Below are positions 1 through 58,341 of a stretch of 64,000 bases of DNA, in pieces; position 1 is the first letter of the stretch, and each line of letters begins with the position of its first letter. The notes under the pieces were generated by a model. The model was not told the origin of the DNA. It saw only the letters and a list, made by a program, of their open reading frames with translations, and did not search any database. Position numbers and translations under genes: made by a program. The stretch covers positions 66,334 through 130,333 of the forward strand of contig JBAXUE010000002.1 in the NCBI GenBank assembly GCA_037129835.1. Reading direction: 5' to 3'. Source of the DNA: a bacterium (GTDB lineage: Bacteria; Patescibacteriota; CPR2; UBA1875; CAIMLA01).

Positions 1-953
1 GTAGCATTGTAATTCTTCTTTTGGTTTTTGTACCGGGACTTAAGTTTTCTCATAATGGTGCCTCGCGATGGATTAATATTTTTGGGATTCAGTTTCAGCC
101 TTCAGAACTGATGAAAATTAGTATGATTATATTTTTAGCGAGCTGGCTCGAAAAAAGAAAAAATGAAATCGGAGATTTTCAAAAAGTGGTAGTACCATTT
201 GCCGGTATCGTTATTTTAGTACTCGGCCTGATATTAATCGAACCAGATATGGGAACAGCTACGGTTCTTGCGCTTACAGCAGGGGTAATGTTTTTTGTAG
301 CTGGGTCCAAAATGTCACATGTTTTCGCAGCAGTGGGTACCGCTATCGGAGGAGTAATTGTTTTAATAGCTGCCGCTCCCTATAGAATGGCCAGGTTTAC
401 TATCTTCTTAAACCCTACAGCAGATAAGTCTGGTAGTGGTTATCAAATTTCGCAAGCGCTGGTGGCAATTGGAAGTGGCGGTTTGTTTGGGCTTGGGTTC
501 GGCAGAAGTCGACAAAAATTCAATTATTTACCCGAGGCAGCTACAGATTCGATTTTTGCTGTTATCGCTGAAGAGCTTGGACTAATCATTTCCTGCGCCA
601 TCGTCTTTGTTTTTTTGCTTTTTGGCCTTCGTGGTTATAAAATATCTAGGGGAGCACCTGATATGTTTTCCAGGTTGGTAGCTACGGGGATAACTACTTG
701 GATTATTTCTCAGGCATTTATTAATATTTTAGCGATATTAAGCCTAATGCCCCTTACTGGGGTGCCTTTGCCATTTTTTAGTTATGGCGGCACATCATTA
801 ATGATGATTTTGGCTAGTTGTGGAATATTATTAAATATATCAAAATCTGCAAATCAAGGAGGAAGCGATGAGAATAATAGTATCGGGCGGTGGAACTGGC
901 GGACATATTTCCCCAGTTTTAGCAGTAATAGGCGAATTACAAAAAAAAGATAG
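1..953 (+). CDS. ftsW: SEDS-family peptidoglycan polymerase FtsW/RodA (5' end outside window)
   Basis: Frame is open from base 3 (the listed start at 21 is only TTG). Polytopic membrane protein with SEDS hallmarks: RWINIFGIQFQPSELMKI, EPDMGTA, SGGLFGLGFG, LPEAATDSIFAVIAEELG, PLPFFSYGGTS. Followed by murG and ftsQ as in dcw clusters. Confidence 0.9.
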   Translation, partial: SIVILLLVFVPGLKFSHNGASRWINIFGIQFQPSELMKISMIIFLASWLEKRKNEIGDFQKVVVPFAGIVILVLGLILIEPDMGTATVLALTAGVMFFVAGSKMSHVFAAVGTAIGGVIVLIAAAPYRMARFTIFLNPTADKSGSGYQISQALVAIGSGGLFGLGFGRSRQKFNYLPEAATDSIFAVIAEELGLIISCAIVFVFLLFGLRGYKISRGAPDMFSRLVATGITTWIISQAFINILAILSLMPLTGVPLPFFSYGGTSLMMILASCGILLNISKSANQGGSDENNSIGRWNWRTYFPSFSSNRRITKKR

Positions 954-2058
954 TTCAGTTGAAGTTTTATATATTGGTTCTTCGGAGGGGCTAGAGAGCA
1001 AGATTATCCCTCAAACTGGAATTAAATTTGTCGAAATTCATTCAGGTAAATTTCGTCGATATCACAAAAATAAAATATTAAATATTATTGATCCCACTAC
1101 TATTTATAAGAATTTTGTAGATCTTATCAAATTCAGTAGAGGTTACTTCGAGGCTAAAGAAATTATTTCAGAATATGATCCAGATGTTGTTTTTTGCAAA
1201 GGGGGATACGTTAGTTTCCCAGTCGGACTGGCGGCTTCTTCATTGAAATACCCTCTCGTTATCCATGAATCTGACAGTATTATGGGTATGGCAAATAAGG
1301 CGCTAGCTAAAAGGGCAGACAAGGTTTGCGTTTCATATCCGCTCAAAAACTTCACTGATGTTCCAAAAGATAAACTTGTTTATTCTGGTAATCCAGTCAG
1401 AGGAGATATTTTCGAGGGAGATAGAGGTAAGGCTGTAGAGGAATTTAGCCTTGTAAGGACGCTTCCGACACTTTTAATAATTGGGGGTAGCCAAGGTTCT
1501 CTGGTTATTAATCAAGTCGTTTCTGAGGCGCTTAGGAGTTTATTGAAAAGATATCAAATTATTCACGTATCGGGGGAAAGAGATTACGATTGGCTGAGTT
1601 TTCAAGCCGGCAAGCTACCAGAGGATGTAAAGGCGAACTATCATTTATATAATTTTCTTTCTGGAAGTCTCAAGCACGCATACAAAGTATCTGATTTGGT
1701 TATTTCTCGGGCGGGTAATAACGTGATTTCCGAACTTGCAGTACTTGGTAAGCCAACTATCTTAATTCCACTTCAGTCCTCTGCTAATGACCATCAGGTT
1801 TCAAATGCAAAGATTCTTTCTAGAATGGGTGCTGCTATGTTGGTCAAGCAGGACAGCCTAACAGCCCAATCGCTTGAGCGGAAAATAAATTATTTATTTG
1901 ATAATAAGGAAGAGCTAGATGGACTTGCTAGGAAAATTTCGGAATTATCAGCACCCGAAGCTTCTAAAATAGTAGCAGATATTATTAACGAAGAAGGAAA
2001 TAAGTTTATTCAAGAAACAAGCTATGAAGAAAATGAAAATAAGTCAGAGGAGAAATAA
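868..2058 (+). CDS. murG: UDP-GlcNAc:lipid I N-acetylglucosaminyltransferase MurG
   Basis: N-terminal MRIIVSGGGTGGHISPVLAV glycine loop, IIGGSQGS, and ISRAGNNVISELAVLGKPTILIP C-domain motif. GT28 architecture and dcw context. Acidic C-terminal tail. Confidence 0.93.
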   Translation: MRIIVSGGGTGGHISPVLAVIGELQKKDSSVEVLYIGSSEGLESKIIPQTGIKFVEIHSGKFRRYHKNKILNIIDPTTIYKNFVDLIKFSRGYFEAKEIISEYDPDVVFCKGGYVSFPVGLAASSLKYPLVIHESDSIMGMANKALAKRADKVCVSYPLKNFTDVPKDKLVYSGNPVRGDIFEGDRGKAVEEFSLVRTLPTLLIIGGSQGSLVINQVVSEALRSLLKRYQIIHVSGERDYDWLSFQAGKLPEDVKANYHLYNFLSGSLKHAYKVSDLVISRAGNNVISELAVLGKPTILIPLQSSANDHQVSNAKILSRMGAAMLVKQDSLTAQSLERKINYLFDNKEELDGLARKISELSAPEASKIVADIINEEGNKFIQETSYEENENKSEEK

Positions 2059-2845
2059 TTCACGAAATATTCGAAGGGCTGTTCGTCAACCTTCTCTATA
2101 TTCAAGGACAGAAGAGCCAGCTCCTAAGCCATTCTCTTTCCGTTGGATAATTATCTTCGTTATTTTGTTGTTAATAACTGGGATTATATTTTTAGTATTT
2201 ATTTCTGACGTATTTAGGGTTAATAATGTGGTTTTTTCTCCTACGAAATACATTAGTAGGGAAGAGTTGGAAAAAACTAAGAATAATAATCAGACACTTT
2301 TTGATAATAATATTATTTCTTTTGGCTTTTTTGGTCTGGCGGGAAAGCTTGAGAAAGTGACTGGAGTTTCTAAAATTTCTGTTATTAGAAAAAGCAACCA
2401 TGACATCTATGTAAATATAAAGGAAGAATATCCTCTCTTGGTTTGGCAGACGATGAATAAAAAATATTTGGTCAATAACGATGGAATTATCTGGGCTAAT
2501 TTTGAAGATAAATATGCCAGTGTCCCGATTATAATTGATACCAAGAATGTACCCGTAGAACTGAACTCAAAGGTAATTCCGGGTACCTTTATCTCTTTTA
2601 TTACTGAACTACAGAATAATTTTCCAAAGAAAACCGCTAATACAATTATAAAAATGGAAGTTTTGGATATAATCAGCGATCTTAGGGTCACTACCAAAGC
2701 TGGCTGGTGCGTTTATTTTGATACATCGAGAACTGCCGGTAACCAGATCATAAGCTTGGGCAGAGTTCTAACCGAAGTCGCTGCTAAAAAGCAACCACTT
2801 GAATATGTCGATCTTCGGGTCAGAGACAGAATATTTTATAAGTAG
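2024..2845 (+). CDS. ftsQ: FtsQ/DivIB-like cell-division protein
   Basis: Basic N-terminus, single TM (WIIIFVILLLITGIIFLVFI), POTRA-like segment (FRVNNVVFSPTKYISREEL) and a beta-rich C-domain. Position directly after murG. Start could be 2024 or 2033. Confidence 0.7.
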   Translation: MKKMKISQRRNNSRNIRRAVRQPSLYSRTEEPAPKPFSFRWIIIFVILLLITGIIFLVFISDVFRVNNVVFSPTKYISREELEKTKNNNQTLFDNNIISFGFFGLAGKLEKVTGVSKISVIRKSNHDIYVNIKEEYPLLVWQTMNKKYLVNNDGIIWANFEDKYASVPIIIDTKNVPVELNSKVIPGTFISFITELQNNFPKKTANTIIKMEVLDIISDLRVTTKAGWCVYFDTSRTAGNQIISLGRVLTEVAAKKQPLEYVDLRVRDRIFYK

Positions 2846-2890
2846 GTTCGATGCTCGCTTCGGGGGAGAGGACCACAATATTTGTATAAT

Positions 2891-2912
2891 AATTTATTAA
2901 TATTAATAAATT
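2891..2912. repeat. perfect 22-nt AT-only palindrome AATTTATTAATATTAATAAATT
   Basis: The sequence equals its own reverse complement. It lies 46 nt after the ftsQ stop. Confidence 0.9.
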
Positions 2913-2955
2913 AACTTCTAGGTATAAACGTATAAATGCCATAATGTTAATTTAA

Positions 2956-2993
2956 CTAATTATTTGATAATAATACAATTATCAAATAATTAG
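2956..2993. repeat. perfect 16-bp inverted repeat (CTAATTATTTGATAAT / ATTATCAAATAATTAG) with 6-nt spacer
   Basis: Read directly from the sequence. The arms are exact reverse complements. Confidence 0.9.
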
Positions 2994-2999
2994 TATTTT

Positions 3000-3027
3000 A
3001 CAGTTCAAATAATATATTATGTTAAAC
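3000..3027. other. candidate dif (XerC/XerD) recombination site
   Basis: ACAGTTCAAAT-AATATA-TTATGTTAAAC. The right arm matches the E. coli dif XerD arm TTATGTTAAAT at 10/11, with an AT-rich 6-nt centre. It lies in the only convergent strand-switch gap of the window. The left arm is a weak match. Confidence 0.35.
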
Positions 3028-3456
3028 TATACATTTAACAATTTACTTGCAAAGAAAACTCCAGCCACATACTGCAGAGCTATTACAGATACAGAATAAC
3101 TTTCTCCAATATTTAGGCTTTGCAAAGATATAAACGATGTATTTTTATCGTTTTCTATGACCACTTACACCCCCAAGTCGATATAATCAAATAGTCGTCC
3201 AAGATATATTGTGCGACACAATGCTTCAAGCAGTTCTGGTAGGTAAGGGTGAGGCTATGGTAGTCATCTAAGTATTTAATTAGGTCGACCCATACCGTTT
3301 AGACTTAGGGCGCAGAGAAAAAAGGGGGAACTTCTTTTACTTTATAATGTAACAATTCTATTGTATTTTGATTAAGTAATTGAGTATTTTAAAAATAATC
3401 CCCCCAAAAAAAATTGGATATAATTTGTAATCATAAACGATAACTTAATATATTAA

Positions 3457-6453
3457 TTAAAACCGGATTTCTTCGCCTGGCTTTATCTCTTTAGTACTAC
3501 TGATGATTATTTTTTCATGTGGAAGTATCGTGGTTATGTCTTTAAAGTCACTAGGAGCTATCTCTCGTTGCTTTTTGTCGCTATGAGTACTGTTTGTATG
3601 TATTGTACTCGGTTTCGCCACTGTGACGATGATTTCTTTTATCTCAGTCTTTGTCTCCAATTTTGGTTTTTCAATGGGGGAATCCAGCTTCTTGGGTTCT
3701 ATATTTTTTGTATTTTCGGTAATTGCCTGTTTTAACTTATCTGCCAGCTGAGTGTTATCGTTTTTTACTTCACTCTTTCCCCTATTTAAATTTGAATTAG
3801 AACGAGAATTTGTGTTCTTTTCTTTATTGTTACTATTAAATTTGTTTTTACTTCTCTCATTATTGTCGTTATGATCATTACTACTATTATTGGAAATATT
3901 GGTATTACCGCTAGCGCTAGGTTTTTCTTTATCTGGTTGCGGAGTAACCATTTCTTTGTTAGCAGGTGGAATGTAATTAGGATTTGTAATAGGTCTATCG
4001 CCTTCGTTGGCATTCACGCCAGCGATTACCGAATCGATATTGTACCATTTCCGAATATCGTCTTCTACTTTCTTTTTTGGAGTACCGTATTTTTTTCGCG
4101 AAATAGCAATTACTATGCTCGTTAGATCTTCCGTTGGCTCTGCAGAGGGAATACTTTTTGCTGAGAATGGTGAGCTATTTACTCCATTTACTGGCATATT
4201 AAGGTATAAATGCCGATTGTCTAGATTGATAAGGTCATTCTGTGAAAATATAGGCTCAAATTCTTTTTCTAGAAAGCTAGCATCTGTTGCGCCCACCCTA
4301 AATGATATCAGAGTACCTACGTTGCCAAATACCGCGTCTCTAACCTCTTCCTCCATCTGTGCAACGTATTGGTTGGCCACAGCTAGGGAAAGATGGTATT
4401 TTCGGGCTTCAGAAAGAATGGTTCCAAAGGATTCTGTGGCAAAATTTTGAAACTCATCAACGTAAAGATAGAAGTCTTTCCTCTCTGATTCAGGAATAAA
4501 CGCTCTTTGCATGGCAGCGAGCTGGATTTTTGTGATTATTAATGAGCCAAGAAGTTCTGAGTTTATCTCCCCTATTTTGCCCGTTGATAGATCTACTAGT
4601 AATATTTTTCCCGTATCCATTATTTCTGAAAAGTTAACAGTGCTTTTTGGTTGACCAACAATATTGCGAATAGTTTCTGAAGCTGTAAATTGGCCAACTT
4701 TATTAAGAATAGGCGCTACAGTCTCAGTAGCCATTTTATCATTATAGGTAGAAAACTCTTTGAGCCAGAACATCTGTACTACTGGGTCAGTTACTTGGCT
4801 AACTACATTTTTGCGATAATTTTTATCGGTTAGCATTCTGACAATACCTAGCATAGTAGAGCCCTCAACTTCTGCTAGCGCTAGTACCGTGTGATTTAAG
4901 ACATATTCTAGCCTTGGCCCCCAGGAGAACCCAAACATTCTCTTCAGTACTGATATAAAGCCCTTTGCAGTCTCTTCACGCATTCCAGGGGGGCTTTCCA
5001 GGGGATTAAAACCTAGGGGAAACTCTTTATCAGAGGGGTTAAGATAAATAACATCATCTAGGCGCTCTTTGGGGATAAATTTAAGAATATTATCTATAGC
5101 CTCTCCATGAGGATCAATAAAGGCTACACCCTCCCCTCTTTGGATATCTTGTATCGCTAAACCTTCAAGAAGCCTAGACTTTCCTACTCCAGTTTTCCCG
5201 ATTATGTACATATGTCTTCGTCTATCATCTCTTTTGATCCCGAACAGTTTATCGCTATTTCGGAAAGTTGTAATCGCAAGGGGTGAAATGTCTTTATCGT
5301 TAATGTTTTCATCAGTAATGAAGGGCAAGCTTGATGGTGGTTCGCCTTTTTTCGAAGATGTCCATACGATATTGGGCGTTTCTACCGAAACATGTGGCAA
5401 GTGATATAAACTTGCAAGTTCTTCAATATTAAGATCATAGCCCTTGTCATTAAATAGTCTTGCCCGATAAGCGTTTAAGAATTCTTCACTTGTAAATAAA
5501 CCCTTCCCAGTAAAGCCATTTAAGTTTGTTGTATTAAATTGTTTAAAAGCACCAACAACGGCTTGAATTTTATCGGTAGCCTTTTCTCTGGACTTAGAAA
5601 GATATACAACCCTTATCATGACGCGATACCCGAGTTTGGCGCTCTTGTCTTCAATGGCTGTTAACTCAGTTTCTTCTGCATGAGAAAGTTTAGGCGCCTC
5701 AGGCTTAGCATCTTTTTTAGCTTCTACGGGTGCAACATTGAGCGCATTGAATATAAAATCTAGAGGGAGGGTGCCGGAGTTGGGTTTTATGGTTTTTTTA
5801 GACGCGATATATGAAAGAGCTTTTTTCCTCCAGTCGTCATTTTCTGGTTTTGCGAGTATTTGAATCCAAATTTGTTCATTTGGCTCATTGGTCATAGAAA
5901 GCATGCCCGTAATTCCTGCCAGCGGGTCAACATCAAAGTTCAAAAAAGTTTTTATTGGGTAAATATCATCTTTTGTAAGAAGTAATTCTGTTCCCGCAAT
6001 AGCATCTGGATTTTTATCACCGTCTACATCGGTTGTTTTTGAGTAGTCATTAACCACTGATATTTCCGCAGTCGGATATTGAGCATAGACTTGACCTTCT
6101 ACAAATTCTTTAATCTTCTTGGGCACCCAGATGAAAAATTCTATAGAATTTAACGTAGAGACGATTTCAAGGCTGAAATGTTCTTGTACGGTGGTTCCCT
6201 TTTTTTGTTCGCTTTTTGAATGAAGAATACCGTGTAGGGCTGCGAACATCATTTCTGCTGCCACAGGGCCTTTCTCATTATTTTTAGGTATTTTTATTGA
6301 TAAGACAGTATGTTCAATTTCGTTTACGTATGAAGCTTTTTTAAAATTTTTCCATGAAAAAAATAGAACTAGTGGTACTATAAACCACCAAGTCCAAACT
6401 ACAACACTCCACATTCCTCCAAGTATCGCTAAGCTAAGTTCCTGCAAAAACAT
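3457..6453 (-). CDS. membrane-anchored TraD/VirD4/HerA-FtsK-like P-loop ATPase with low-complexity C-terminal tail
   Basis: N-terminal TM (WSVVVWTWWFIVPLVLFFSW), Walker A IIGKTGVGKSRLLE, Walker B FYLYVDEFQNF. The last ~190 aa are N/S/K-rich low complexity. Its start overlaps the upstream stop by 1 nt (TAATG). Confidence 0.75.
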   Translation of the reverse strand: MFLQELSLAILGGMWSVVVWTWWFIVPLVLFFSWKNFKKASYVNEIEHTVLSIKIPKNNEKGPVAAEMMFAALHGILHSKSEQKKGTTVQEHFSLEIVSTLNSIEFFIWVPKKIKEFVEGQVYAQYPTAEISVVNDYSKTTDVDGDKNPDAIAGTELLLTKDDIYPIKTFLNFDVDPLAGITGMLSMTNEPNEQIWIQILAKPENDDWRKKALSYIASKKTIKPNSGTLPLDFIFNALNVAPVEAKKDAKPEAPKLSHAEETELTAIEDKSAKLGYRVMIRVVYLSKSREKATDKIQAVVGAFKQFNTTNLNGFTGKGLFTSEEFLNAYRARLFNDKGYDLNIEELASLYHLPHVSVETPNIVWTSSKKGEPPSSLPFITDENINDKDISPLAITTFRNSDKLFGIKRDDRRRHMYIIGKTGVGKSRLLEGLAIQDIQRGEGVAFIDPHGEAIDNILKFIPKERLDDVIYLNPSDKEFPLGFNPLESPPGMREETAKGFISVLKRMFGFSWGPRLEYVLNHTVLALAEVEGSTMLGIVRMLTDKNYRKNVVSQVTDPVVQMFWLKEFSTYNDKMATETVAPILNKVGQFTASETIRNIVGQPKSTVNFSEIMDTGKILLVDLSTGKIGEINSELLGSLIITKIQLAAMQRAFIPESERKDFYLYVDEFQNFATESFGTILSEARKYHLSLAVANQYVAQMEEEVRDAVFGNVGTLISFRVGATDASFLEKEFEPIFSQNDLINLDNRHLYLNMPVNGVNSSPFSAKSIPSAEPTEDLTSIVIAISRKKYGTPKKKVEDDIRKWYNIDSVIAGVNANEGDRPITNPNYIPPANKEMVTPQPDKEKPSASGNTNISNNSSNDHNDNNERSKNKFNSNNKEKNTNSRSNSNLNRGKSEVKNDNTQLADKLKQAITENTKNIEPKKLDSPIEKPKLETKTEIKEIIVTVAKPSTIHTNSTHSDKKQREIAPSDFKDITTILPHEKIIISSTKEIKPGEEIRF

Positions 6454-7553
6454 TATTCCCTCCCGTTAGAAATGGTATAAGTAGCCCGAGATATTCGCCT
6501 AAATCGATCTCTTTGGAGATTGAGTAATATCGTCGTTTCTTTTACAACCCTTCGTTTCAATACCTCTATTATAATATCGTCTTTATGCATAGGTTCGCCA
6601 GATGTAATTAATATTTCTGCTATTACATCCTCTACCACGCCAGAAGTATAACCCCACTCCTTGAGCGCATAGATACCTCGACCGATTAAAATAAATCTGT
6701 CATCACGTATAAGTTCATTGTGTACGGCTTGTCTGGTAACGGTTTTTTTCTTAGTTCCAACATCTTGAATCTTTTTTGATATTTCAGAATAATGAAGAGG
6801 TTTTTTGTGTTTCTTTAAGATGTAATATGTTTTATCCTTAATACTTTTAGGATTAATTTCACGCCATTTGGTAAGGCCGAAGTGTCCTGCTTCGGTTTTG
6901 ATGATTTCCTTAGCGGTCGATAATATCGCGATAATATTTTTAGTATCTGTATTTGCTTCAGGGATAGTCATTTTTATTTCTCGTATAAGCTTTACTTCTT
7001 CTATGGGATTTTGTTCTTTTTCGAGGATACTAATAGCTGCAGCACTAATCGTTTTAATTAAGGGTATTGTAATTGGTTCGACAAAATACGATTTTTTAAA
7101 GTTATCAGCGTCAGAGAGCGTTGAGATGTTGTTACTGCAAGAGATCAAAAAACTTAGTTGATATCGTTGTTTTGTAGTAACCACAGCGGTGAAAATATCC
7201 TTTTCTAGGTCGCCAGAAACGATGATGCCACCGTTATTGATTATAATATCTTTAATGATTATATATATTTCTTGAGCTCGCATGTCGGTTTTGCCGAAGT
7301 CGCGAAGCTTACCAATGGCGTTCTTCTCTATTTGTCGTACGCGTTCCCTAGTAATGCCTAGACTCTTACCTATTTCTTCGAGAGTTTTTGGTTTTAGGCC
7401 ATCAACACCAAAGCGTTCGCTCAACACTTGTCTTTCGCGATCTTTTTTTATTTTTGCAGAATTCAAAAAAAAATTAACCTCGTCTGTTGCATTAAATTTT
7501 GCAACCGAAGGTATCTCTACTGTATTCGTGTTTTTTTCTTGTTTTCTAGGCAT
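6453..7553 (-). CDS. sigma-70 region-4 HTH plus HARE-HTH domain protein
   Basis: [28 protein letters not shown] is a sigma-70 region 4.2 HTH. The C-terminal [12 protein letters not shown]...[17 protein letters not shown] resembles the HARE-HTH of RNAP delta-like proteins. Confidence 0.65.
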
Positions 7554-7613
7554 AATTCGTAATACGATTATAGCATAAAATAGCCTGTTGTGTCAACTTA
7601 TTTGCCTATAGCG

Positions 7614-8462
7614 TTATTTTATGAATATATCTATTAAAGTGCCCGCAACGGTGCTGATAACCACCAGAATCAGGGCTATTTGTGCGAGATTTTTCCACTT
7701 AATGCCTCTAGCTGCTAGAACGACGAAGACCTCTCCACCAGCGGCAGAAAGTCCAGCTACTACGGCGCCAAAGGTAATGATTTTTTCAATATATAGAGTC
7801 GCTATCGCTATAGAGGTGCCACAACCTGGTATCAACCCCACTAATGACGCAAGGAAAGGCTGTAGCCATAAAATATTCGCAAAAAAGTCGTTTAAAAAAG
7901 TCATTGTATAGGTGTCTTGAATATAATTAAAAATAGCAAGCGTGATAAATACAATAAAGACCACTCGGATAGCATGTTTGATGGCATGTATGATCTCGCC
8001 TTTCAGGCCATCATGGTGCGGATGTTGTGCGCAACAAAACTCTATTTCTTTTTCAATTTTGGTTCTGCGTATCTTAAATCCAGGGAAGAAGTCTACTAGG
8101 TAGCCAGCCGTTATGGCTATAATTAGCTTAGCCAGTAAAATCGGTATAAACTTTTCTATCCCAAGCGGTATAAATACATATATCGCTTCGTCAGAGATAG
8201 CAATAATCGCGGCTACCAAGGTTCCTAGGGTCGCTATCCCTTCCGTAAACAATATCGCTATTACAACAGCTACATTACATCCGGGAAGCATTCCGAAAAG
8301 TGCAGCGAACAGAGGCATCATTTTCTTGGATTTTTCGAGTTTATGTTCAACCTTATGTCCGTATCGATGATTAAAATAATCAACAATCACAAAGATAGGC
8401 AGGATTATTACTCCTACTCTTAGCGCAGTTTTTGCTGCTTCTATTATTGGTTCCCAATTCAT
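7614..8462 (-). CDS. polytopic membrane protein, putative metal-ion permease (ArsP_2 / '10TM heavy-metal exporter'-like)
   Basis: About 8-10 TM segments, duplicated (M/G)LPGCN / LIPGCGTS motifs, and a His/Cys-rich loop CCAQHPHHDG. Confidence 0.55.
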   Translation of the reverse strand: MNWEPIIEAAKTALRVGVIILPIFVIVDYFNHRYGHKVEHKLEKSKKMMPLFAALFGMLPGCNVAVVIAILFTEGIATLGTLVAAIIAISDEAIYVFIPLGIEKFIPILLAKLIIAITAGYLVDFFPGFKIRRTKIEKEIEFCCAQHPHHDGLKGEIIHAIKHAIRVVFIVFITLAIFNYIQDTYTMTFLNDFFANILWLQPFLASLVGLIPGCGTSIAIATLYIEKIITFGAVVAGLSAAGGEVFVVLAARGIKWKNLAQIALILVVISTVAGTLIDIFIK

Positions 8463-8477
8463 TAGGTTATTTTACCA

Positions 8478-9287
8478 CTATTTAAACAATCTTTTATAAT
8501 TTAGCCAGCTAGAAAGTTCGCTTTCATTTTGAATGTATCCACGATATTCTATATTTTCTCCGAGATGTATGCCTAGGTGCAGGTGTTTTCTCTCCCCCCC
8601 ACTATTAGTACTGTAGGCTGGTGCCAAATTTGCTATTAAACTTTTTTTGTTTAAAATGTCGTTAACTTTTAGGTTTGATGAAGCAATATCAAGATGACCG
8701 TAAAGCACGGTTACTACTTGTTCTCCCACGTTGCAATCTTGGATAACAGCTCCTCCATATCCTTCTATTGGTCCGATTAGACGTATTTTTCCGTTACATA
8801 TTGCGGTTATTGGCACCGCGATATCTGCCTCATTAGATAGCGTTTCAAAATCAATGCCGGTATGAAATCCTATAAAATTCTCGGGCTGTATTGGTGATTC
8901 AGTAGGCGTGACATAGATTCCAAAAGGTTTTTTTGTTATTCTGGATAAAGAATTTGAGATGGGTTCGCCTAATGTCCCTATATTCGATGTCGTCGTCGGT
9001 ATTGGTGTAGGCGTTGGCGTTAACATCGGCGTCACACTAGGAGAAGATTTTGCATTAATGCTTCGTTGTAAATATACCCTACCTTTTACGACGCATTTTC
9101 GTGGATTGCTCATCTGAACTGGGATGCCAGCCTTTATACAACTTTCATAACTATTTATTTGGCTTAAGGTAAATTGTTTATATGCGTATACTAGAACAAT
9201 AAATATAATAAAAATTATTAATAATAAAAAATAATATATTCGCTTATTGTGTATCTTAATTCGTAAAAATTTACGTTTCCTATACAT
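8478..9287 (-). CDS. membrane-anchored M23 (LytM-type) peptidoglycan endopeptidase
   Basis: N-terminal TM, a Pro/Thr linker (TPMLTPTPTPIPTTT), and M23 metal ligands GFHTGIDFE and KHLHLGIH. Confidence 0.85.
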   Translation of the reverse strand: MYRKRKFLRIKIHNKRIYYFLLLIIFIIFIVLVYAYKQFTLSQINSYESCIKAGIPVQMSNPRKCVVKGRVYLQRSINAKSSPSVTPMLTPTPTPIPTTTSNIGTLGEPISNSLSRITKKPFGIYVTPTESPIQPENFIGFHTGIDFETLSNEADIAVPITAICNGKIRLIGPIEGYGGAVIQDCNVGEQVVTVLYGHLDIASSNLKVNDILNKKSLIANLAPAYSTNSGGERKHLHLGIHLGENIEYRGYIQNESELSSWLNYKRLFK

Positions 9288-10584
9288 CTTGCTTTCTTTC
9301 TTCTAGCCTTTTTTTGATCTCTAACTCTGCACCATTTGAGCTCGGTTGATAATATTTCTTGTGCTTTAATTCTGGTGGTAAATATTCTTGTTCAACGAAG
9401 TGTCCAGGATAATCATGAGGGTACTTATACCCCTTCCCTTTTCCTTGACTTTTATCAAAACCTGTTGGTGCATTTACGATATGTTTAGGCACACCGCTGA
9501 ATTTTTCTTCTCGAACATCACGAAGTGCATTATCGATAGCAAGATATGAGGCATTCGACTTTGGTGCACTGGCGAGATATATAACACATTGTGCGAGATT
9601 GATTCTTGCTTCTGGAAGGCCGATTTTTGTAACTGCATCGAAGGTGGTATTCGCAAGCACTAGTGCCATCGGTGCTGCATTGCCGATATCTTCAGAGGCA
9701 AAGACCAACATTCTGCGAGCAATAAACTTAGGATCTTCACCGCCCTCTATCATTCTTGCTAGCCAGTAGATTGCTGCGTCAGGGTCACTACCACGCATTG
9801 ATTTGATAAAAGCCGAGATAATATCGTAGTGCTCGGCGCCCTGTTTGTAACTACTGATGAATCTTTTACTAATTGCTTGTTGTAAAATATCTTGAGTAAT
9901 TTTGTTATTCAATAATTTGGAATTTGACGCGATTTCTAATGAGTTTAGGGCCACTCTTGCATCACCGCTAGAATATTCAGCCAGAGTCTCGAGTGCTTTC
10001 TTGTCTATCTTGATTCCCCTGTCCCCAAGACCGTTTGTTTTATCCTTTAGTGCAGCCTTAATAATGTTTATTATATCTATTTCTTCAAGTGGTTTTAGTT
10101 CGAATAGTTTCGACCGAGACATGATGGCAGAGTTGATTTCAAAACCTGGATTCTCGGTCGTCGCGCCTATCAAAATAATAGTACCGTTCTCAATATGAGG
10201 AAGAAAACCGTCTTGTTGAGATTTGTTAAAACGATGTATTTCGTCAACGAAAAGAACAGTTTTTTTGTCATAAAGCTCTCTGTTTTCTTTTGCTTCTTTG
10301 ACTACTCTACGGAGATCGGCTACACCGCTAGTAACTGCGCTAAATTCTTCGAAATTGCTCTTTGTTTGGTTTGCGATAATCCGTGCGAGAGTAGTTTTGC
10401 CAGTTCCCGGTGGCCCCCATAGGATTATCGAAGAGAGAGTATCATTTTCGATAATTTGTCGTAGAAGTTTCCCTTCACCGACGATGTCCTCCTGACCAAA
10501 AAAGAGATTAAAATCAGTGGGCCTCATTCTGTCAGCAAGAGGTTTGTGAGAATTATTTTTATTAAAGATATTTGGTATTTCCAT
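9280..10584 (-). CDS. rarA: replication-associated recombination protein A (AAA+ ATPase)
   Basis: ILWGPPGTGKTTLAR, VLFVDEIHRFNK, LIGATTENP, and MgsA C-domain RGSDPDAAIYWLARM / SEDIGNA. Confidence 0.93.
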   Translation of the reverse strand: MEIPNIFNKNNSHKPLADRMRPTDFNLFFGQEDIVGEGKLLRQIIENDTLSSIILWGPPGTGKTTLARIIANQTKSNFEEFSAVTSGVADLRRVVKEAKENRELYDKKTVLFVDEIHRFNKSQQDGFLPHIENGTIILIGATTENPGFEINSAIMSRSKLFELKPLEEIDIINIIKAALKDKTNGLGDRGIKIDKKALETLAEYSSGDARVALNSLEIASNSKLLNNKITQDILQQAISKRFISSYKQGAEHYDIISAFIKSMRGSDPDAAIYWLARMIEGGEDPKFIARRMLVFASEDIGNAAPMALVLANTTFDAVTKIGLPEARINLAQCVIYLASAPKSNASYLAIDNALRDVREEKFSGVPKHIVNAPTGFDKSQGKGKGYKYPHDYPGHFVEQEYLPPELKHKKYYQPSSNGAELEIKKRLEERKQDV

Positions 10585-10627
10585 AGTCTTATTCTAAGCT
10601 TAGAGTAAGCATAATTCAAGTGTACGT

Positions 10628-12157
10628 CTAGACTGTCTGTATGCCATCATGTGTTATCTCAAGTACCTTACTTGGTTTTATGGCTTCAAGAAACTCTCTG
10701 TCGTGAGTAATTACTATGTACGTTCCAGAGTATTTGTTGATAGCGGACTGAAGCTCTTCTGCGGCAGCAATATCCAAATGATTGGTTGGTTCATCAAAGA
10801 GCAGGACATTGGCTCCTTTCCACGACAAGCTAGCAAGTATCAATCTCTGTCTTTCTCCTGGGCTCATCTTTTCAGCAACTATATTATTCTTTTCATCTAG
10901 GTTAAATCTAGCGAGAACTTGTCGTAGTTTTCCTTCGGTTAAGCTTGATTTATCTGCCTCTAGTCCAGTCATGATCTTGAAATTATCTAGTAAGCTTTTA
11001 TCTGGTGCTGGAATCGATTGATCCTGGTCAATAAGGCCAAAGTGGACACTGGGACCGATGGATATATCTCCCGAAGTGGGCTTCAGTTCTTTGAGTAATA
11101 TTTTTAATAATGTAGTTTTACCTACACCATTAGCTCCCACTATCGCTATTCTATCCCCACGATTTACCTCTAGAGTCAGGGGTCCTATCTTTCGTTCTTT
11201 GCTTAGGTTTATTTCGACTTTATCTAGCTTTGCAATCGAGTCACCCAGATATTCGTGGTTATCAAACAGGAAATTTAAGTCCAACTCCTTTTGAGGCTTC
11301 GACTTATCGTCCATTCTACCGATTCGATTTCTTAAAACTTCAGTTTGACGCCCTAGTTTTCTGGTAGCAGATTCTTTCTCCCTATTGAAAGCGAGCTTAT
11401 CGTTATCCTTTTTGTTTTTTGAATTATTCGATTTTGTCGCATTTCTTTGCATTTCCCGATAAGCTTTTTCTGCTCGTTTTTTGTCTTCTAAGTAGTTCTC
11501 ATAATCAGATTTGATTTTTTCTTTTTCTAGATGTTTTTCGTTGAGGTAATCATCATAGCTCATATTGTATGTCGCCAGTCCAGTCGCGTTAGCGCTAAGT
11601 TCCAGTACTTTTGTGCTCAATTTACGGATAAAGGTTCGATCATGAGAAACAAAAATCACAGCCTTTTTGTTATTTAGTAAATACTCTTCTAAAAGTATCA
11701 GGCCTTCTTTATCGAGGTTATTTGTAGGCTCGTCGAGTAAGAGAATGTCACTACCCGCAAGCATAATAGTAGCCAGAAGAAGCTTCGTTTTTTCTCCCCC
11801 AGAAAGTGTGCCAACCTCTCTATCTAGAGATATCTCTCTAATTCCGGTCGAATCAAATACCTTTAATCTTTGAAACTCTTCGATATCCCCTATTCTTAGC
11901 TTTAGATATTCAAGAACGCTGCCCTTATAATTTGCCGGTATTTCCTGGGGGAAATAGCAGATACTTTGTTCTTTATCTTTCACTATTTCTCCCGAGTTTG
12001 CTTCTAATTCACCGGCAATTATCCGCAAGAGAGTACTTTTACCGACCCCGTTTTCACCTATTAGGGCGACCTTTTCACCCAAATCCAAAGTAAGAGAAAT
12101 ATTATTTAGTATTTCTCGACCTGCTATATTATAGTAAATATTATTTATTTTAATCAT
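10628..12157 (-). CDS. ABC-F family ATPase (two NBDs, no TM domain)
   Basis: Two Walker A sites (GENGVGKST, GANGVGKTT), two signatures (LSGGEKT, MSPGERQ), two Walker B sites (LLLDEPTN, LLFDEPTN), and a charged inter-domain linker. Confidence 0.9.
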   Translation of the reverse strand: MIKINNIYYNIAGREILNNISLTLDLGEKVALIGENGVGKSTLLRIIAGELEANSGEIVKDKEQSICYFPQEIPANYKGSVLEYLKLRIGDIEEFQRLKVFDSTGIREISLDREVGTLSGGEKTKLLLATIMLAGSDILLLDEPTNNLDKEGLILLEEYLLNNKKAVIFVSHDRTFIRKLSTKVLELSANATGLATYNMSYDDYLNEKHLEKEKIKSDYENYLEDKKRAEKAYREMQRNATKSNNSKNKKDNDKLAFNREKESATRKLGRQTEVLRNRIGRMDDKSKPQKELDLNFLFDNHEYLGDSIAKLDKVEINLSKERKIGPLTLEVNRGDRIAIVGANGVGKTTLLKILLKELKPTSGDISIGPSVHFGLIDQDQSIPAPDKSLLDNFKIMTGLEADKSSLTEGKLRQVLARFNLDEKNNIVAEKMSPGERQRLILASLSWKGANVLLFDEPTNHLDIAAAEELQSAINKYSGTYIVITHDREFLEAIKPSKVLEITHDGIQTV

Positions 12158-40063: not shown

Positions 40064-43000
40064 TTATTCTTCTTTGCTTTCGATTTCCGCAGCTGCCTTG
40101 ATGGCTATCATGGTTTTCCAGAGATCTTGTAATGTGCTTAAGCCCTCGGTATGGCTAAGTGCGGCCTGACTCGGTTTGCTTATTTCGACGAAACCGGCTT
40201 TACCGATAATCTCAGGGACAAAACCTTGTGAGTCATCATTAATCGGTTTCTCATAGTCAGTCCACGGGTCTACAAAGGCTACTTCCATGTGTTTTTCGGT
40301 CGGCATTATCTCAACAAATTTTGTATGATCTTCACCGACACCATCCTTGGTTTTACCAAAAAATCGTAATGTTACTCCACCGAGAGATTCCTGTCTTCTG
40401 TTTAAAAAGTTGTAAAGACACTCGAGAGATCGGGGTGCTCTTCTAGTAGATTCATCCATAAATAAAGCTCTTCCTCCAAGCATTGAAATCATTTTGAGGA
40501 ATGTGAGATACTCATCGATCCCCTCTGGCTCATCTTTACTGGCGTTAGAAAGACTAGAAGGAATTTTCGTGCCATATATTGGTATTATAAGCTCATCGTC
40601 ATATCCAATAGCTTCTTTTGCCTCTGTAATTAATGTTTCGTCTAAGGCGCCAGTTTGTTCATACTCTTCAAAGGCGGCTTCAATCCGATCTTTATTTGCT
40701 CGTACAAAATTGCGAATATCATCGGTACGAAGCTCTTGGAGTATTTTTCTTTCTTTAGCAAACTGTTCTGGTAAGTATTCGGCTGCTACATCGGCAGGAC
40801 CAGTCCTCTCATTGGCAAGCAAAAAAACAGGGCTTTCTGGATTTTCTCTTTGATATAACAGAGCCGTATTCCAAGTAGTGACTGATGACTCAATATTATG
40901 TTCCATAGTTTCTATCAATTGCTCTGGAGTAAAATTTGATTTTCTACGATTTCTACCTTTTTTGTCTTCTAGTGAACCAAGCTGTTCGTAAAAAATATCT
41001 CCAGTAGTATAGGCTGAACCCTTTTCTATAATTTTTTGTGCGATATATTTTGCCATTTCTACCAGTGGTATTGCATTAGGATGTTCTCTTTTTATCTTCA
41101 CAAATTCTCTTAGAAACTCAACAGGCATCTTAAAATTCTTTGGCTTAATATTTAGATCGCTGACAATCTCATCGTAGATCTTTCTGATGTGTATATAATC
41201 GGAGGAAAAACGGTCAATCTGTGCTGCATCTTGGGAAAAAGGAACAAAACCTTCCTTGAAACCATCCAAAGAGGCTTCTAGCTTACTCTGTATCTGCTCT
41301 ACAGTATCATCTAGGGTTACTTGGTCTTCTGTCAGCCACCTAAGTGCCCGTGAAATTATTTGAAATCTATCGGCGTCAGAATAATTTTCTAGTTCCCTTG
41401 TTAGTATTTGTAGTTTTATTGGGTTATCAAACTGTTTATAACAGGAAATGTCCAGTAGTATCTGTGTGGCTTCTTTTCCCTCTGCAAACAAAGATGCTGT
41501 CAACTGTCCCAACTCAGAATTTTTTGTTTCCTCTAGGTCAGATATTCTTTCGTCGGAAATATTCGTAATGTTATCCACAAAAGTCATAAAAGAATCAAGT
41601 AATAGTTCTCGATTTTCTTTTTTGATACTACCGCTTTCTATAGTGTCTTGGTAAACGTCTATAAAATACCAGAAATTATCAAGACCGGTTTTGTCGATCA
41701 CTTTACTAAAAAATTCTATATCATCATCTCCGCTAAATAATTCGGGATTCGACACAAGATATTCGCAAAGCCTTGTATAATTTATTGCTTCAGTGTGATC
41801 TGTGGCAGACCCCAATATTTTATTTATAAAATCCTTGAAACCAGGCTTTTCGGCAAGAATAAAGACATTCGGCAAAGCCTCTTCGGATAAATATAGGTCA
41901 TAAAATAATTCATTATTTGCCCTTAAGTCTGTTATGTATGCGACATATTCGCTAGCTGCAGTCACCTGCTCTTTTGTAACTCCATGTACCTGTCCATATA
42001 ATTCGAACCCAGACTCGGAAATTTTGTCAGAAAGGAAAAGAGCATCCAATAACATTTTTGCAGTATTTTTGCTTTTCCCAAGCCTTTCGTAATTGTTCAA
42101 CAATACAAGGATAGCAGTCCTAACATATTCTAAATCTCCTTTATAGGTAAATTCTTGGAAGATTTCCACTAAAGAAGCTATAACTCTTGGGTTGGTAGCG
42201 GTTTGAAGTGCTTGGTCGAGCTCGTTTAGATGATCAGCTTTTGCTTGCTCTACATTCTCACTACCATCTTTATCTTTTTCTGGAAAATCTTCCATAATCC
42301 CAATGATAAAAAATCGCTCTTCTTCAGTTCCATTGTTGGCAAAATATAGTGCAGTTTGCCTTAAAAGGCGGCGAAATTCACGGTCATTGTCAAAATTACT
42401 TTTTTCTCCACTGTCTTGATACCAAAGTTGCAGGGTATTCGGATTGGCCTTGATGAAAAGTATAAAATCCAGAAGCTCTTTGGGGAGCTCTATTAGGTTT
42501 CTCAAGTCATCAGATGAAAGTGACTCTAGATATCCGGGTAACTGATCAATATATGGCCAACCTCCAGAATAACCTACCTCTCTAAAGGCATTTAGGACAT
42601 TAATCTTTACGGCCTCGGGATCTTTAAAAGAAAGAAGCATAGAGCTACATCTCACCGAAAGGTCTGAATGGTCGTTTATTACTGTCATTTCATCGATAAT
42701 TGATCTTTTTATTTTAGTACGGATTATATCGACTAGGGTTTCTCCAAAAATATCTGACAAACCAGGGGCTTCTATTAAGAATTTGATTAAATCACGTTTT
42801 TGATTAAGAAAATCACCATCAATTTCAGTTATTAATCGTTTTAGCATTGTGGTATCTGCAATTGAGTCTTTTTGAGGGTTGCTTTCGACTTGTCGTATGC
42901 GTTTTCTTATCAATTCGGCTAGATCATTGTATTTATCGAATTCTGTAAAAATAGTAACGGCATCTGCAATATTATTTCTACTAATATTCATTGATTTCCT

Positions 43001-58038: not shown

Positions 58039-58056
58039 AACCCCTCCAAAAAACAC

Positions 58057-58085
58057 TTGACAAAAGTAGCCAACAGTGCTAGAAT
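58057..58085 (+). promoter_or_regulatory. near-consensus sigma-70 promoter TTGACA-17 nt-TAGAAT
   Basis: Read directly. It points into the 58.09-58.34 kb non-coding gap. Confidence 0.55.
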
Positions 58086-58091
58086 AAATAG

Positions 58092-58341
58092 TCAACCTAA
58101 ATCAGGATGACATTTGACAATAAGTTTCTCTAGGTAAACGCCAGTTATGGCGAGTGTCCTATCAATGAGTAAGGCCTTAAACACCCTCCTTTAAGCTTAC
58201 TTGTTGGTAGGGTTCTCCCCGTAACCGCCAGCCAATATTTTGGGCTAGGTAAAGTCTTCGGATCGAGTTACACTAACGGGAGAACTTTGAAACAAAAGTA
58301 AGGGAGTCGTATTTATACGGCTCCCTTACTTTATTATATTT
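58092..58341 (+). ncRNA. candidate ~250-nt ncRNA of unknown class
   Basis: Bounded by the promoter above and a 17-bp-stem terminator (AAGTAAGGGAGTCGTAT/ATACGGCTCCCTTACTT plus a T-rich tail). Internal hairpins: CGCCA-GTTA-TGGCG, AGTAAG..CTTAAA-CACCCTCC-TTTAAG-CTTACT, and a UUCG loop at 58254-58261. No credible ORF. G+C-richer than its flanks. Confidence 0.4.

Follow-up and report, generated by a model that had tools for sequence, protein, structure and literature searches.

A conserved chromosomal gene pair of Patescibacteria encodes a sigma region 4/winged-helix protein and a membrane-anchored VirB4/VirD4-superfamily ATPase

The type IV coupling proteins TraD, TrwB and VirD4 are membrane-anchored P-loop ATPases that have two transmembrane (TM) helices and are linked to a relaxase, an oriT and a type IV secretion system (T4SS). 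F-plasmid TraD has a long C-terminal extension ending in a conserved peptide, and this tail binds TraM, a DNA-binding ribbon-helix-helix protein encoded next door. The VirB4/TrwK proteins run from an N-domain to an ATPase domain, lack the tail and TraG-D_C region, and adjoin VirB3, VirB6, VirB8 or pilin genes; TrsD/TrsE are a split Gram-positive T4SS form. On the transcription side, the delta subunit (RpoE) of Firmicutes RNA polymerase (RNAP) consists of a HARE-HTH winged helix and an acidic C-terminal tail, and in ECF sigma/anti-sigma operons a sigma-related gene leads, with the gene of a single-pass membrane protein tightly coupled downstream. The gene pair described here shares traits with each of these systems.

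The window, a 64,000-nt stretch of contig JBAXUE010000002.1 from a CPR2 bacterium, carries on its minus strand two open reading frames that each start with ATG, one of 366 aa (7553..6453) and one of 998 aa (6453..3457). The ORFs and the sequence confirm the TAATG overlap at 6451-6455 described in an earlier note on this DNA. The minus-strand junction is GGGAGGGAATAATG, in which the TAA stop (6455-6453) and the ATG start (6453-6451) have a single base (A) in common, and together with a Shine-Dalgarno-like GGGAGGG at 6464-6458 the element spans 6451..6464. The overlap, from which translational coupling had been deduced, is lineage-specific; elsewhere the genes are separated by a median of ~42 nt and overlap in only 2 of 42 pairs. 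The pair is co-transcribed from its own predicted consensus promoter, a minus-strand TTGACA, 18-nt spacer and TG-TATAAT at 7567..7596 upstream of the sigma-like gene, which was the sole 12/12 consensus match in a scan of 5 kb (2800-7800). As the end of the -10 hexamer lies 13 nt ahead of the ATG, the leader of the first gene would be very short and lack a Shine-Dalgarno sequence.

The 366-aa product is a soluble protein of five HTH-type domains, a primary-sigma-type region 4 plus four winged helices. Region 4 (aa 38-84, 7302..7442) matched Pfam Sigma70_r4 with 61.4 bits, and its best PDB sequence matches were region 4 of primary sigma factors. The next two winged helices (aa 91-157 and 163-227, 6873..7283), defined by AlphaFold2 (AF2) secondary structure and alignment, form the most variable part of the aligned proteins. 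The third (aa 237-300, 6654..6845) matched Pfam HARE-HTH (44.7 bits), exceeded the cutoff of the NCBIfam RNAP-delta model TIGR04567 (45.3 bits, cutoff 42) and superposes on Staphylococcus aureus delta, whereas the fourth (aa 307-361, 6471..6635; AF2 model and alignment) is strongly conserved. The AF2 model of the whole protein had a pLDDT of 90.3 and a pTM of 0.74. Homologues fall into more than 7000 clusters, all of which combine region 4 with HARE-HTH. Unlike delta, the protein lacks an acidic C-terminal tail, has a net charge of +16, is twice as large, and carries a sigma region 4 as well as three additional winged helices.

The predicted -35-recognition helix of region 4 is intact, every -35-recognition residue being kept, and T68 R69 E70 R71 V72 R73 Q74 (TRERVRQ) is invariant among 31 homologues. 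Given this primary-sigma-type region 4 and the +10 charge of the HARE part (residues 231-300), the protein looks like a DNA binder. Pfam gave no match to sigma region 2 or 3, in agreement with the earlier note, which had described a region 4 plus HARE-HTH protein that is not a sigma factor. Lacking regions 1.2, 2 and 3, which sigma-70 family members possess, the protein can neither bind a -10 element nor open duplex DNA and cannot serve as a sigma factor, and the annotations "RpoS" and "sigma factor-like" are misleading. Many homologues are labeled delta subunit by JGI.

The second product is an ATPase that one TM helix anchors on the cytoplasmic side of the membrane. Its N-domain is of the VirB4 type, its catalytic domain resembles those of TraD and TrwB, and its long flexible tail ends in a conserved peptide. 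Hydropathy gave one TM-like segment (aa 8-35, 6349..6432), modeled by AF2 as a helix of aa 2-45. Since KNFKK follows it, the positive-inside rule predicts that the N-terminus lies outside and that the remainder is cytoplasmic. The DUF8128 N-domain (~aa 46-377, 5323..6318) has a VirB4/TrwK N-terminal domain-like fold and closes with a conserved linear motif, KKGEPPxxLP (aa 367-376), at which the gene is divided in its split forms. The P-loop domain (~aa 404-790, 4084..5244) matched Pfam TrwB_AAD_bind (aa 409-702, 24.8 bits, cutoff 20.5) and TraG-D_C (aa 662-726, 22.6 bits, cutoff 22), scores that barely exceed the thresholds of these coupling-protein models. DUF87, AAA_10 and HerA-type matches were weaker, NCBIfam gave partial matches to SXT_TraD, TOL_TraD and CedD, and the only PDB sequence matches of the domain were TrwB and DotL. 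The Walker A motif GKTGVGKS (aa 419-426, nt 5176-5199) and the Walker B motif FYLYVDE (aa 661-667, nt 4453-4473) are both kept, with G419, K420, G424, K425, D666 and E667 invariant among homologues, and hence the ATPase looks active. Homologues with PF26449 plus PF10412 make up more than 7000 clusters.

The catalytic domain is followed by an N/K/S-rich low-complexity tail (~aa 800-960, 3574..4056; over residues 800-998, N makes up 14%, K 13% and S 9.5%) that varies in length and sequence between homologues. The protein ends in a conserved element (aa 961-998, 3460..3573) with no Pfam match, of the form I-x-P-x-D/E-F ... I-x-P-H-E-K-I ... E-I-K-P-G-E-x-I-x-F, and lineages as distant as Parcubacteria share the terminal PGExΦxF peptide. 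The earlier note had described a single-TM FtsK/HerA/TraD-type ATPase with a disordered tail, and Pfam, hydropathy and composition support a single-TM ATPase of the FtsK/HerA/VirD4 superfamily with a low-complexity tail. The layout of N-domain then ATPase domain is that of VirB4/TrwK, but the sequence did not match CagE_TrbE_VirB, AAA_10 was below threshold, the gene does not adjoin the partners of VirB4, and Patescibacteria T4SS loci hold a separate, bona fide VirB4.

The two genes recur together in both directions of search. In an ATPase-led survey of 80 GTDB-species loci (73 testable units), the sigma-like gene lay directly upstream on the same strand in 43. Starting from the sigma-like gene (80 metagenome loci, 58 testable), we found a DUF8128 gene within 900 nt downstream in 47 and within 2.6 kb in 3 more. 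This adjacency is far above chance. The pairs recurring in other Patescibacteria have protein identities of 30-57% and different flanking genes, which upstream are DprA-TopA, SecD-SecF or an aminoacyl-tRNA synthetase and downstream FtsQ-MurG-FtsW, a D-Ala-D-Ala carboxypeptidase or MltG. The pair is a chromosomal housekeeping module conserved over the ultra-small Patescibacteria. The ATPase is split into separate genes in 18 of 82 units, so that, as with TrsD/TrsE, both fused and two-gene forms occur naturally. In at least eight loci an N-domain-only gene follows the sigma-like gene without an ATPase domain, and the DUF8128 N-domain is the most constant partner of that gene. The sigma-like gene also remains at four loci that the ATPase has left (L092, L105, L113 and L148). 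No sigma-like/ATPase gene fusion was found among the related loci; one apparent fusion, at L004, was a run of N and so not real.

Published transposon sequencing in Southlakia epibionticum separates the two genes. The apparent orthologues, assigned by domain architecture, size, adjacency and TopA synteny rather than by alignment, are SEML1_0294 (sigma-like; ES/ES/ES) and SEML1_0293 (ATPase; NE/NE/NE, reads dropping from 5817 to 2940 to 1372) (PMC10633639 Table S1). With only the sigma-like orthologue essential, the DNA binder must also act independently, and the two-gene DNA-binding and DNA-pumping unit proposed earlier cannot be a simple obligate pump. Uptake or export of DNA, also suggested then, is unlikely for the module alone, since each subunit has a single TM helix and the module includes no gene for a channel.

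Our preferred reading, plausible but tentative and short of probable, is a T4SS-independent adaptor and motor module that acts on DNA at the membrane, the adaptor having a second, essential role that is probably in transcription. The HTH protein would be the DNA-recognizing adaptor and, by analogy with TraM on the F-plasmid TraD tail, would dock on the ATPase via the N-domain and/or the C-terminal tail peptide. It could thereby deliver certain DNA, or DNA in complex with RNAP, to a hexameric motor at the membrane that would move or remodel this DNA on the cytoplasmic side without a dedicated channel, for example in chromosome handling at division or in the processing of incoming DNA. The ATPase-independent role of the adaptor would most likely lie at promoters or on RNAP. 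We count in favor of the module that the pair keeps together while its flanks change. A link between tail and adaptor is suggested by tail length, which reached 50 aa or more in 40 of 41 adaptor-linked ATPases but in only 16 of 28 that lacked the link (Fisher p = 3e-5, uncorrected for phylogeny), and an adaptor gene never adjoins the tail-less ATPase paralogues. The N-domain-only genes still paired with the adaptor gene argue for a link between N-domain and adaptor, and the essentiality of SEML1_0294 and the persistence of the adaptor gene without the ATPase gene argue for its independent role.

Several observations weigh against the adaptor and motor module. A regulator-target or factor-antagonist pair would account at least equally well for an adaptor that is essential beside a motor that is not, and ~40% of ATPase loci (Dojka-, Gracili-, Peregrini-, Abawaca- and Daviesbacteria loci plus paralogues) have no adaptor gene nearby. 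In known systems the N-domain of VirB4 type serves as a scaffold between proteins rather than for handling DNA, the match to DNA-translocating coupling proteins is weak (24.8 bits), and the related ATPases VirB4 and EssC/EccC move proteins, not DNA.

A possible though rather unlikely alternative is a factor with a membrane antagonist, akin to sigma and anti-sigma. The essential sigma-r4/delta-like protein would be a general RNAP- or promoter-binding factor sequestered at the membrane by its antagonist, the co-translated membrane protein, which could be the DUF8128 N-domain alone or joined to the ATPase. Release would depend on ATP hydrolysis or on the tail and might, for example, be switched between motile and host-attached stages. 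The gene order is that of ECF operons, factor first and single-pass membrane protein second with tight or overlapping junctions, and the retained -35-recognition residues, the delta-like HARE domain, the dispensable partner, the loci where the N-domain alone suffices as neighbor and those where the factor gene persists alone all fit. Unlike ECF pairs, however, this one lacks region 2, an anti-sigma domain and an extracytoplasmic sensor domain, its partner being a large ATPase predicted to be wholly cytoplasmic. Simple sequestration leaves the invariant, apparently active ATPase and the long tail unexplained, and a protein with region 4 only cannot direct initiation itself.

It is distinctly unlikely that the adjacency is purely regulatory, with the HTH protein controlling the ATPase gene that follows it, along with essential genes at other sites, and the two proteins never touching. 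A regulator beside its target is the commonest cause of conserved transcription factor gene adjacency, the perfect -35 TTGACA of the operon could be recognized by the encoded region 4, and the essential/dispensable split is compatible with such control. A phylum-wide, essential and highly conserved five-domain protein would nevertheless be atypical of a local regulator, and the tail-adaptor association and the retention of the pair through ATPase splitting hint at a link between the proteins.

Judged by the genes annotated around it, the pair does not belong to a conjugation or T4SS coupling apparatus. As noted earlier, no T4SS or conjugation genes lie nearby: there were none among the nine neighboring ORFs within ~10 kb or among ten further ORFs of the window (mostly the larger ones), and no T4SS gene, relaxase or oriT was seen among annotated genes and gene families in the window and the related loci. 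Those loci are flanked by housekeeping genes, and the pair is not embedded in conjugative elements there either. On both points that could have refuted the earlier note, co-conservation of the pair and its genetic setting, the outcome thus favors it. That the ATPase is nonetheless a canonical coupling protein feeding DNA or protein to a T4SS encoded elsewhere, with the HTH protein as a relaxosome-like accessory, is very improbable. Its matches to TrwB_AAD_bind, TraG-D_C and TraD models point that way and T4SSs are present in many Patescibacteria, but this chromosomal, phylum-wide core protein has one TM helix and a ~360-aa VirB4-type N-domain inserted ahead of the P-loop rather than the two-TM layout, and its partner is an HTH/winged-helix protein, not a ribbon-helix-helix one. 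The ATPase is counted among the Patescibacteria VirD4-type homologues, of which only 148 of 5,713 lie near virB4, and the authors of that survey raise exaptation (PMC12102498). In S. epibionticum the T4SS is essential, as is another coupling protein-like gene, SEML1_0142, but the ATPase orthologue is not.

There is a slim chance of a competence motor, in which the ATPase would act after ComEC to draw incoming DNA into the cytoplasm, with the HTH protein handling that DNA. Loci of CPR2, WS5 and Saccharibacteria have DprA two genes upstream, but DprA-TopA adjacency is common throughout bacteria, pair or no pair, and a distance of 46.5 kb separates the pair from DprA and TopA in this window. Natural transformation occurs in Patescibacteria, and S. 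epibionticum can do without competence (PMC12857230), as it can without the ATPase orthologue. Incoming DNA is single-stranded, whereas HTH/winged-helix domains bind duplex DNA, and the essential partner is left unexplained.

A split FtsK-like chromosome pump at the terminus, with the HTH protein as sequence-reading gamma domain, is largely refuted and scarcely likely, because Pfam gave no FtsK_SpoIIIE, alpha or gamma domain match, S. epibionticum keeps a complete, essential FtsK (SEML1_0096), and its pair, at 279-283 kb of 864 kb, is off the terminus, so that the terminal location proposed for the pair is not conserved. The terminus at this locus is itself weakly supported: in several lineages the pair and the dcw division cluster converge, and a dif-like palindrome lies at 3002-3028, but the motif is absent from 163 related loci. 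The GC skew changes sign near 3-4 kb of the window, and as the dcw genes of relatives show the same coding-strand skew, the flip may be a coding-strand effect.

The two genes lie on the minus strand of the window, the open reading frame of the 366-aa sigma-like protein at 7553..6453 and that of the 998-aa ATPase at 6453..3457. The minus-strand junction between them reads GGGAGGGAATAATG; the TAATG overlap reported in the earlier note is present, the TAA stop codon (6455-6453) and the ATG start codon (6453-6451) having one base in common, and a Shine-Dalgarno-like GGGAGGG located 5 nt upstream at the junction is a strong element for the second cistron. The gap of 60 bases between the preceding gene and the pair contains a minus-strand sigma-70 consensus promoter (7596..7567; TTGACA, an 18-nt spacer and TG-TATAAT), which is the sole 12/12 match in a scan of 2800-7800. 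The promoter match ends 13 nt from the first ATG, and the first cistron (window 7553-7596) has a leader of a few nt that lacks a Shine-Dalgarno sequence. As its own consensus promoter lies in the upstream gap, the pair looks like a unit that is transcribed separately and whose first cistron is nearly leaderless. The perfect -35 hexamer of the operon, TTGACA, is the motif predicted to be recognized by the region 4 that the operon encodes. An Rfam scan of window positions 1-12000 gave no match (E ≤ 0.1) and there are no tRNAs in the window. Across related loci from other Patescibacteria the spacing of the two genes ranges from -11 to 502 nt (median about 42 nt) and overlap is found in two pairs only; the stop/start overlap is not a general trait of the pair.

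Pfam analysis of the sigma-like protein gave Sigma70_r4 (aa 38-84, 61.4 bits) and HARE-HTH (aa 237-300, 44.7 bits), and the RNA polymerase delta model of NCBIfam was passed over aa 237-308 (45.3 versus a cutoff of 42). No Pfam match to any other sigma region was found in the 366-aa protein, neither region 2 alone nor region 2 with region 3. A profile of 31 homologues matched region 4 of primary sigma factors in the PDB with E values around 1e-14 (best 4e-15). The recognition helix T68-R-E-R-V-R-Q74, the counterpart of the TRERIRQ with which E. coli sigma-70 reads the -35 element, is invariant among homologues having overall identities of only 38-57%. In the AlphaFold2 model (pLDDT 90.3, pTM 0.74) region 4 (aa 22-89) is preceded by only about 20 disordered residues and followed by winged helices at aa 91-157, 163-227, 238-297 (the HARE domain) and 307-361. 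The composition assigned earlier from the sequence, region 4 plus HARE-HTH with regions 2 and 3 missing, is borne out. Given region 4, the HARE and other winged helices and the basic charge (net +16 for the whole protein, +10 for the HARE domain by itself), this is a nucleic-acid-binding protein and not a sigma factor, and it may bind RNA polymerase. Sigma-70 family factors share the region 4 HTH, but their region 2, which performs core binding and -10 recognition, is absent here. RNA polymerase delta (RpoE) shares the HARE-HTH but is a small two-domain protein with an acidic disordered C-terminal domain, whereas the protein described here has five folded domains and no acidic tail. The current labels (RpoS, sigma factor, delta subunit) are mis-annotations. 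Literature searches on HARE-HTH together with sigma, delta subunit/RNA polymerase or Patescibacteria turned up no description of such a sigma-like/HARE protein, and its status as a separate family matters for models of transcription in the reduced genomes of Patescibacteria.

The downstream product was correctly described as a single-TM P-loop ATPase with an N/K/S-rich tail: its only hydrophobic segment is at aa 8-35, with KNFKK after it, the Walker A (aa 419-426) and Walker B (aa 661-667) motifs are intact and separated by 235 residues, and residues 800-998 are N/K/S-rich. The Walker residues are invariant among homologues, as is much of the N-domain (about aa 46-377). The N-terminal 400 residues carry PF26449 (DUF8128), a precomputed match on a database protein 100% identical to the window protein; the same family was found on 120 of 120 homologues among the matches listed, and we found no paper that names it. 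The N-domain has the fold of a VirB4-type N-terminal domain. Pfam matches to TrwB_AAD_bind (24.8 bits, cutoff 20.5; HMM positions 12-288 of 387 aligned) and TraG-D_C (22.6 bits, cutoff 22) were both marginal, and DUF87 and AAA_10 were below threshold (AAA_10, 20.0 bits versus a cutoff of 27.5). The TraD models of NCBIfam matched only about 45 aa with scores far under their cutoffs, and PDB sequence matches were to TrwB and DotL only, around the P-loop. The last 40 or so residues are conserved within the clade and a terminal peptide, PGExΦxF, recurs out to Parcubacteria. The evidence on the TM segment, N-domain, P-loop and tail gives the order TM helix, VirB4-type N-domain, T4CP-like ATPase, flexible tail and conserved C-terminal element. 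This last element matched no Pfam family and, as searches at E ≤ 10 gave only noise, an AbrB/SpoVT-like or other known domain was rejected.

Each of the two proteins has more than 7000 homologue clusters, which is a lower bound. Our ATPase-anchored sample comprised 80 loci from GTDB species representatives (Saccharibacteria, Nomura-, Uhr-, Dojka-, Peregrini-, Gracili-, Doudna-, Falkow- and Wildermuthbacteria, and others) and contained 82 units, of which 73 had enough upstream sequence to be testable; the sigma-like gene was directly upstream on the same strand in 43 of the 73. Among 80 sigma-anchored metagenome loci, 58 were full-length with room downstream, and a DUF8128 gene followed within 900 nt in 47 of these and within 2.6 kb in three more. 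These counts bear out the two-gene module proposed in the earlier note. The flanking genes vary by lineage. In CPR2, WS5 and Saccharibacteria the pair is preceded by DprA-TopA and followed by convergent FtsQ-MurG-FtsW; Parcubacteria-type loci have SecD-SecF before the pair and a D-Ala-D-Ala carboxypeptidase after it, and in a third group the upstream gene is an aminoacyl-tRNA synthetase and MltG-MnmA lie downstream. Hence, the pair stays together as its surroundings change. The neighbours in the window are FtsW, MurG, a permease, an M23 peptidase, MgsA, ABC-F and Pif1, those in related loci are housekeeping genes too, and no T4SS gene or relaxase was found among the annotated neighbours in either. 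By these annotations the pair has no conjugative setting, as had been noted, and membership in complete conjugative elements was not seen. It is a conserved, promoter-equipped, T4SS-independent module, a solid observation that points to a phylum-wide module.

The anatomy of the pair varies among loci. The ATPase is split in 18 of the 82 units (L042, L043, L046, L049-L051, L053, L055-L057, L063, L065-L067, L070, L073, L075 and L079), exactly after a conserved KKGEPPxNLP linker (window aa 367-376) that is disordered in the AlphaFold2 model, so that the N-domain (about 420-490 aa) and the ATPase are encoded by two adjacent genes. In at least eight loci (L121, L125, L126, L139, L141, L144, L147 and L157) what comes after the sigma-like gene is a gene for the N-domain alone, with a product of 413-486 aa that ends in ...EPPxNLP; MltG comes next in five of the eight, and no ATPase domain was found downstream in the available sequence of these loci (3.5 kb or more). 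As the N-domain-only proteins still end in EPPxNLP, the ATPase half may be encoded at an unlinked site. Some Saccharibacteria have a second ATPase paralogue that lacks the tail and is not accompanied by a sigma-like gene (L025, 885-3431; L037, 1128-3587; L060, 1746-4118); in some Saccharibacteria-type loci it is found a few kb upstream of the copy that is sigma-linked. A tail of at least 50 aa is present in 40 of 41 sigma-linked ATPases versus 16 of 28 unlinked ATPases (Fisher p = 3e-5, without phylogenetic correction). The sigma-like gene is tied more strongly to the N-domain and tail than to the catalytic domain. A seeming 1340-aa sigma-like/ATPase fusion in L004 (4792-8814) was ruled out because its junction is a masked run of N, and among the best 120 homologues of either protein none carried domains of the other.

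Genome-wide genetic data are available for S. epibionticum, in which SEML1_0294 and SEML1_0293 are adjacent and downstream of TopA (PMC10633639, Wang et al., Table S1). SEML1_0294, 1050 bp and annotated 'RpoS', has Sigma70_r4 at aa 27-72 and HARE-HTH at aa 225-283 (Table S2), and from architecture, size, adjacency and synteny we infer that the two genes are orthologous to the window pair. SEML1_0294 was called ES/ES/ES, its insertions numbering 24 in the input DNA but 1-2 once selection had been applied, and SEML1_0293 was called NE/NE/NE, with normalised reads that drop from 5817 to 2940 and 1372; both were flagged as core and Patescibacteria-enriched (PMC10633639). Essentiality is limited to the sigma-like partner of the two gene products. 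The same tables (S1 and S2) list SEML1_0142, an essential, Patescibacteria-enriched T4CP-like 'TraM recognition domain' protein of 1019 aa with its P-loop assigned to aa 381-800. Its layout is similar to that of the window ATPase, and it may be a real T4SS coupling protein or a further paralogue of the window ATPase family.

The module comprises an intact ATPase on a membrane tether and a partner of five HTH-type domains having an invariant -35-reading helix. We propose that the HTH protein would dock on the ATPase N-domain and/or the tail peptide, would present DNA or DNA-RNA polymerase complexes to a membrane-bound hexamer acting at the cytoplasmic face, and would have a second, essential role, probably in transcription. 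The tail of F-plasmid TraD binds TraM, and docking on the ATPase tail is proposed by analogy with that interaction. Taken together, adaptor docking, a cytoplasmic-face membrane hexamer and a second essential adaptor role make a tentative reading, quite possible although short of probable.

The main rival, which we consider rather unlikely, is a factor-antagonist switch of the sigma/anti-sigma kind. Such a switch accounts at least as well for the essentiality pattern and the N-domain-only loci, but it leaves the invariant ATPase unexplained. Patescibacteria-specific coupling of transcription or promoter DNA to the membrane by the pair is unlikely; the essential sigma-r4/RNA polymerase delta-type hybrid would then bind -35-like DNA or RNA polymerase and the membrane ATPase would hold, release or remodel it, a scheme that we likewise doubt. 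If such coupling were true, it would constitute an ATP-driven switch of global transcription or of nucleoid-membrane attachment, with a possible use in the swarmer-to-attached life cycle of epibionts, and would be without counterpart among known sigma/anti-sigma, delta or T4SS systems. Regulatory adjacency alone, the two products being linked only by the expression of their genes, seems distinctly unlikely.

It is very improbable that the ATPase is a true T4SS coupling protein. It shares with VirD4/TraD/TrwB a P-loop nucleotide-binding domain with Walker A and B, and the T4CP models matched (marginally), but coupling proteins have two TM helices straight before that domain whereas the window ATPase has one and inserts a VirB4-like domain of about 360 aa between it and Walker A (aa 419); moreover, neither a relaxase or oriT nor T4SS mating-pair genes were found among the annotated neighbours. 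A further trait of coupling proteins is an all-alpha domain inserted in the nucleotide-binding domain; the window ATPase has 235 residues from Walker A to Walker B. The N-terminal domain fold is common to the ATPase and VirB4/TraC/TrwK; the 998-aa protein gave no Pfam match to CagE_TrbE_VirB, and no VirB3, VirB6, VirB8 or pilin genes were found beside the window ATPase or in the annotated related loci. A role as competence motor is also very doubtful. With a single TM helix in each subunit and no gene for a channel protein alongside, the module alone is unlikely to pump DNA across the membrane, which argues against the DNA uptake or export suggested in the earlier note. Substitution for FtsK is extremely improbable, as the four-TM N-domain, alpha/beta motor and gamma winged helix of FtsK/SpoIIIE are all lacking (no Pfam match to FtsK_SpoIIIE, FtsK_alpha, Ftsk_gamma or FtsK_4TM at E ≤ 0.1) and replacement was rejected on account of the complete and essential FtsK of S. 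epibionticum (SEML1_0096). A defence system was also rejected, PADLOC giving only weak mad8/HerA P-loop matches and an MzaA region-4 match.

The ATPase family already has Pfam entries (DUF8128 plus TrwB_AAD_bind) and has been noted in publications as an orphan homologue of coupling proteins, and the Tn-seq phenotypes of the pair have been published, though without discussion. Quinonero-Coronel et al. (PMC12102498) reported 5,713 VirD4-type homologues in 2,918 Patescibacteria genomes, only 148 of them near virB4; the S. epibionticum copy was non-essential, and exaptation "cannot be ruled out". The literature flags thousands of 'orphan' VirD4-type genes in the phylum and raises the question of the role to which they were exapted. 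By the literature searched, four points are new: that the N-domain is of VirB4 type, that the module occurs in fused, split and N-only forms, that an essential sigma-r4/delta-like protein is its partner across the phylum, and that the tail correlates with this partnership. The N-domain, this modularity and the constant partner offer handles on the orphan ATPases, and both genes belong to a small core, Patescibacteria-enriched set, one of the two being essential in the sole species with genome-wide genetics.

The location of the pair at a putative terminus, also proposed in the earlier note, may hold for this genome. GC skew is positive over window 1-4000 and negative beyond, and the 611-bp gap in which genes converge (2846-3456) contains a dif-like imperfect palindrome, AGTTCAAATAATATATTATGTTAAACT (3002-3028), present in one copy in the window. 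The right arm of the palindrome, TTATGTTAAAC, is similar to the XerD arm found in known dif sites. The skew switch has only about 3 kb of sequence to its left, and the dcw genes of relatives carry the same coding-strand skew. A terminus may be present here in this genome, but terminus location is not a property of the module: the dif-like motif has no counterpart among 163 related loci and the S. epibionticum pair, located at 279-283 kb in an 864-kb genome that has dnaA at position 1, is not at the terminus.

Comparison with L081 and L083 gives the gene order Der-Pth-DprA-TopA-sigma-like-ATPase in CPR2, WS5 and Saccharibacteria. In the window Der (60037-61437), Pth (59384-59938), DprA (56950-58095) and TopA (54127-56289) are on the same strand as the pair and 46.5 kb from it, and the order in relatives suggests insertion of a large block (7614-54126) that now separates TopA from the sigma-like gene. 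An ORF of 1260 aa at 40064-43846 has no Pfam match at E ≤ 1e-5. Another, of 273 aa at 2024-2845 and also without a Pfam match, sits where FtsQ/POTRA genes follow MurG in relatives and is probably a divergent FtsQ.
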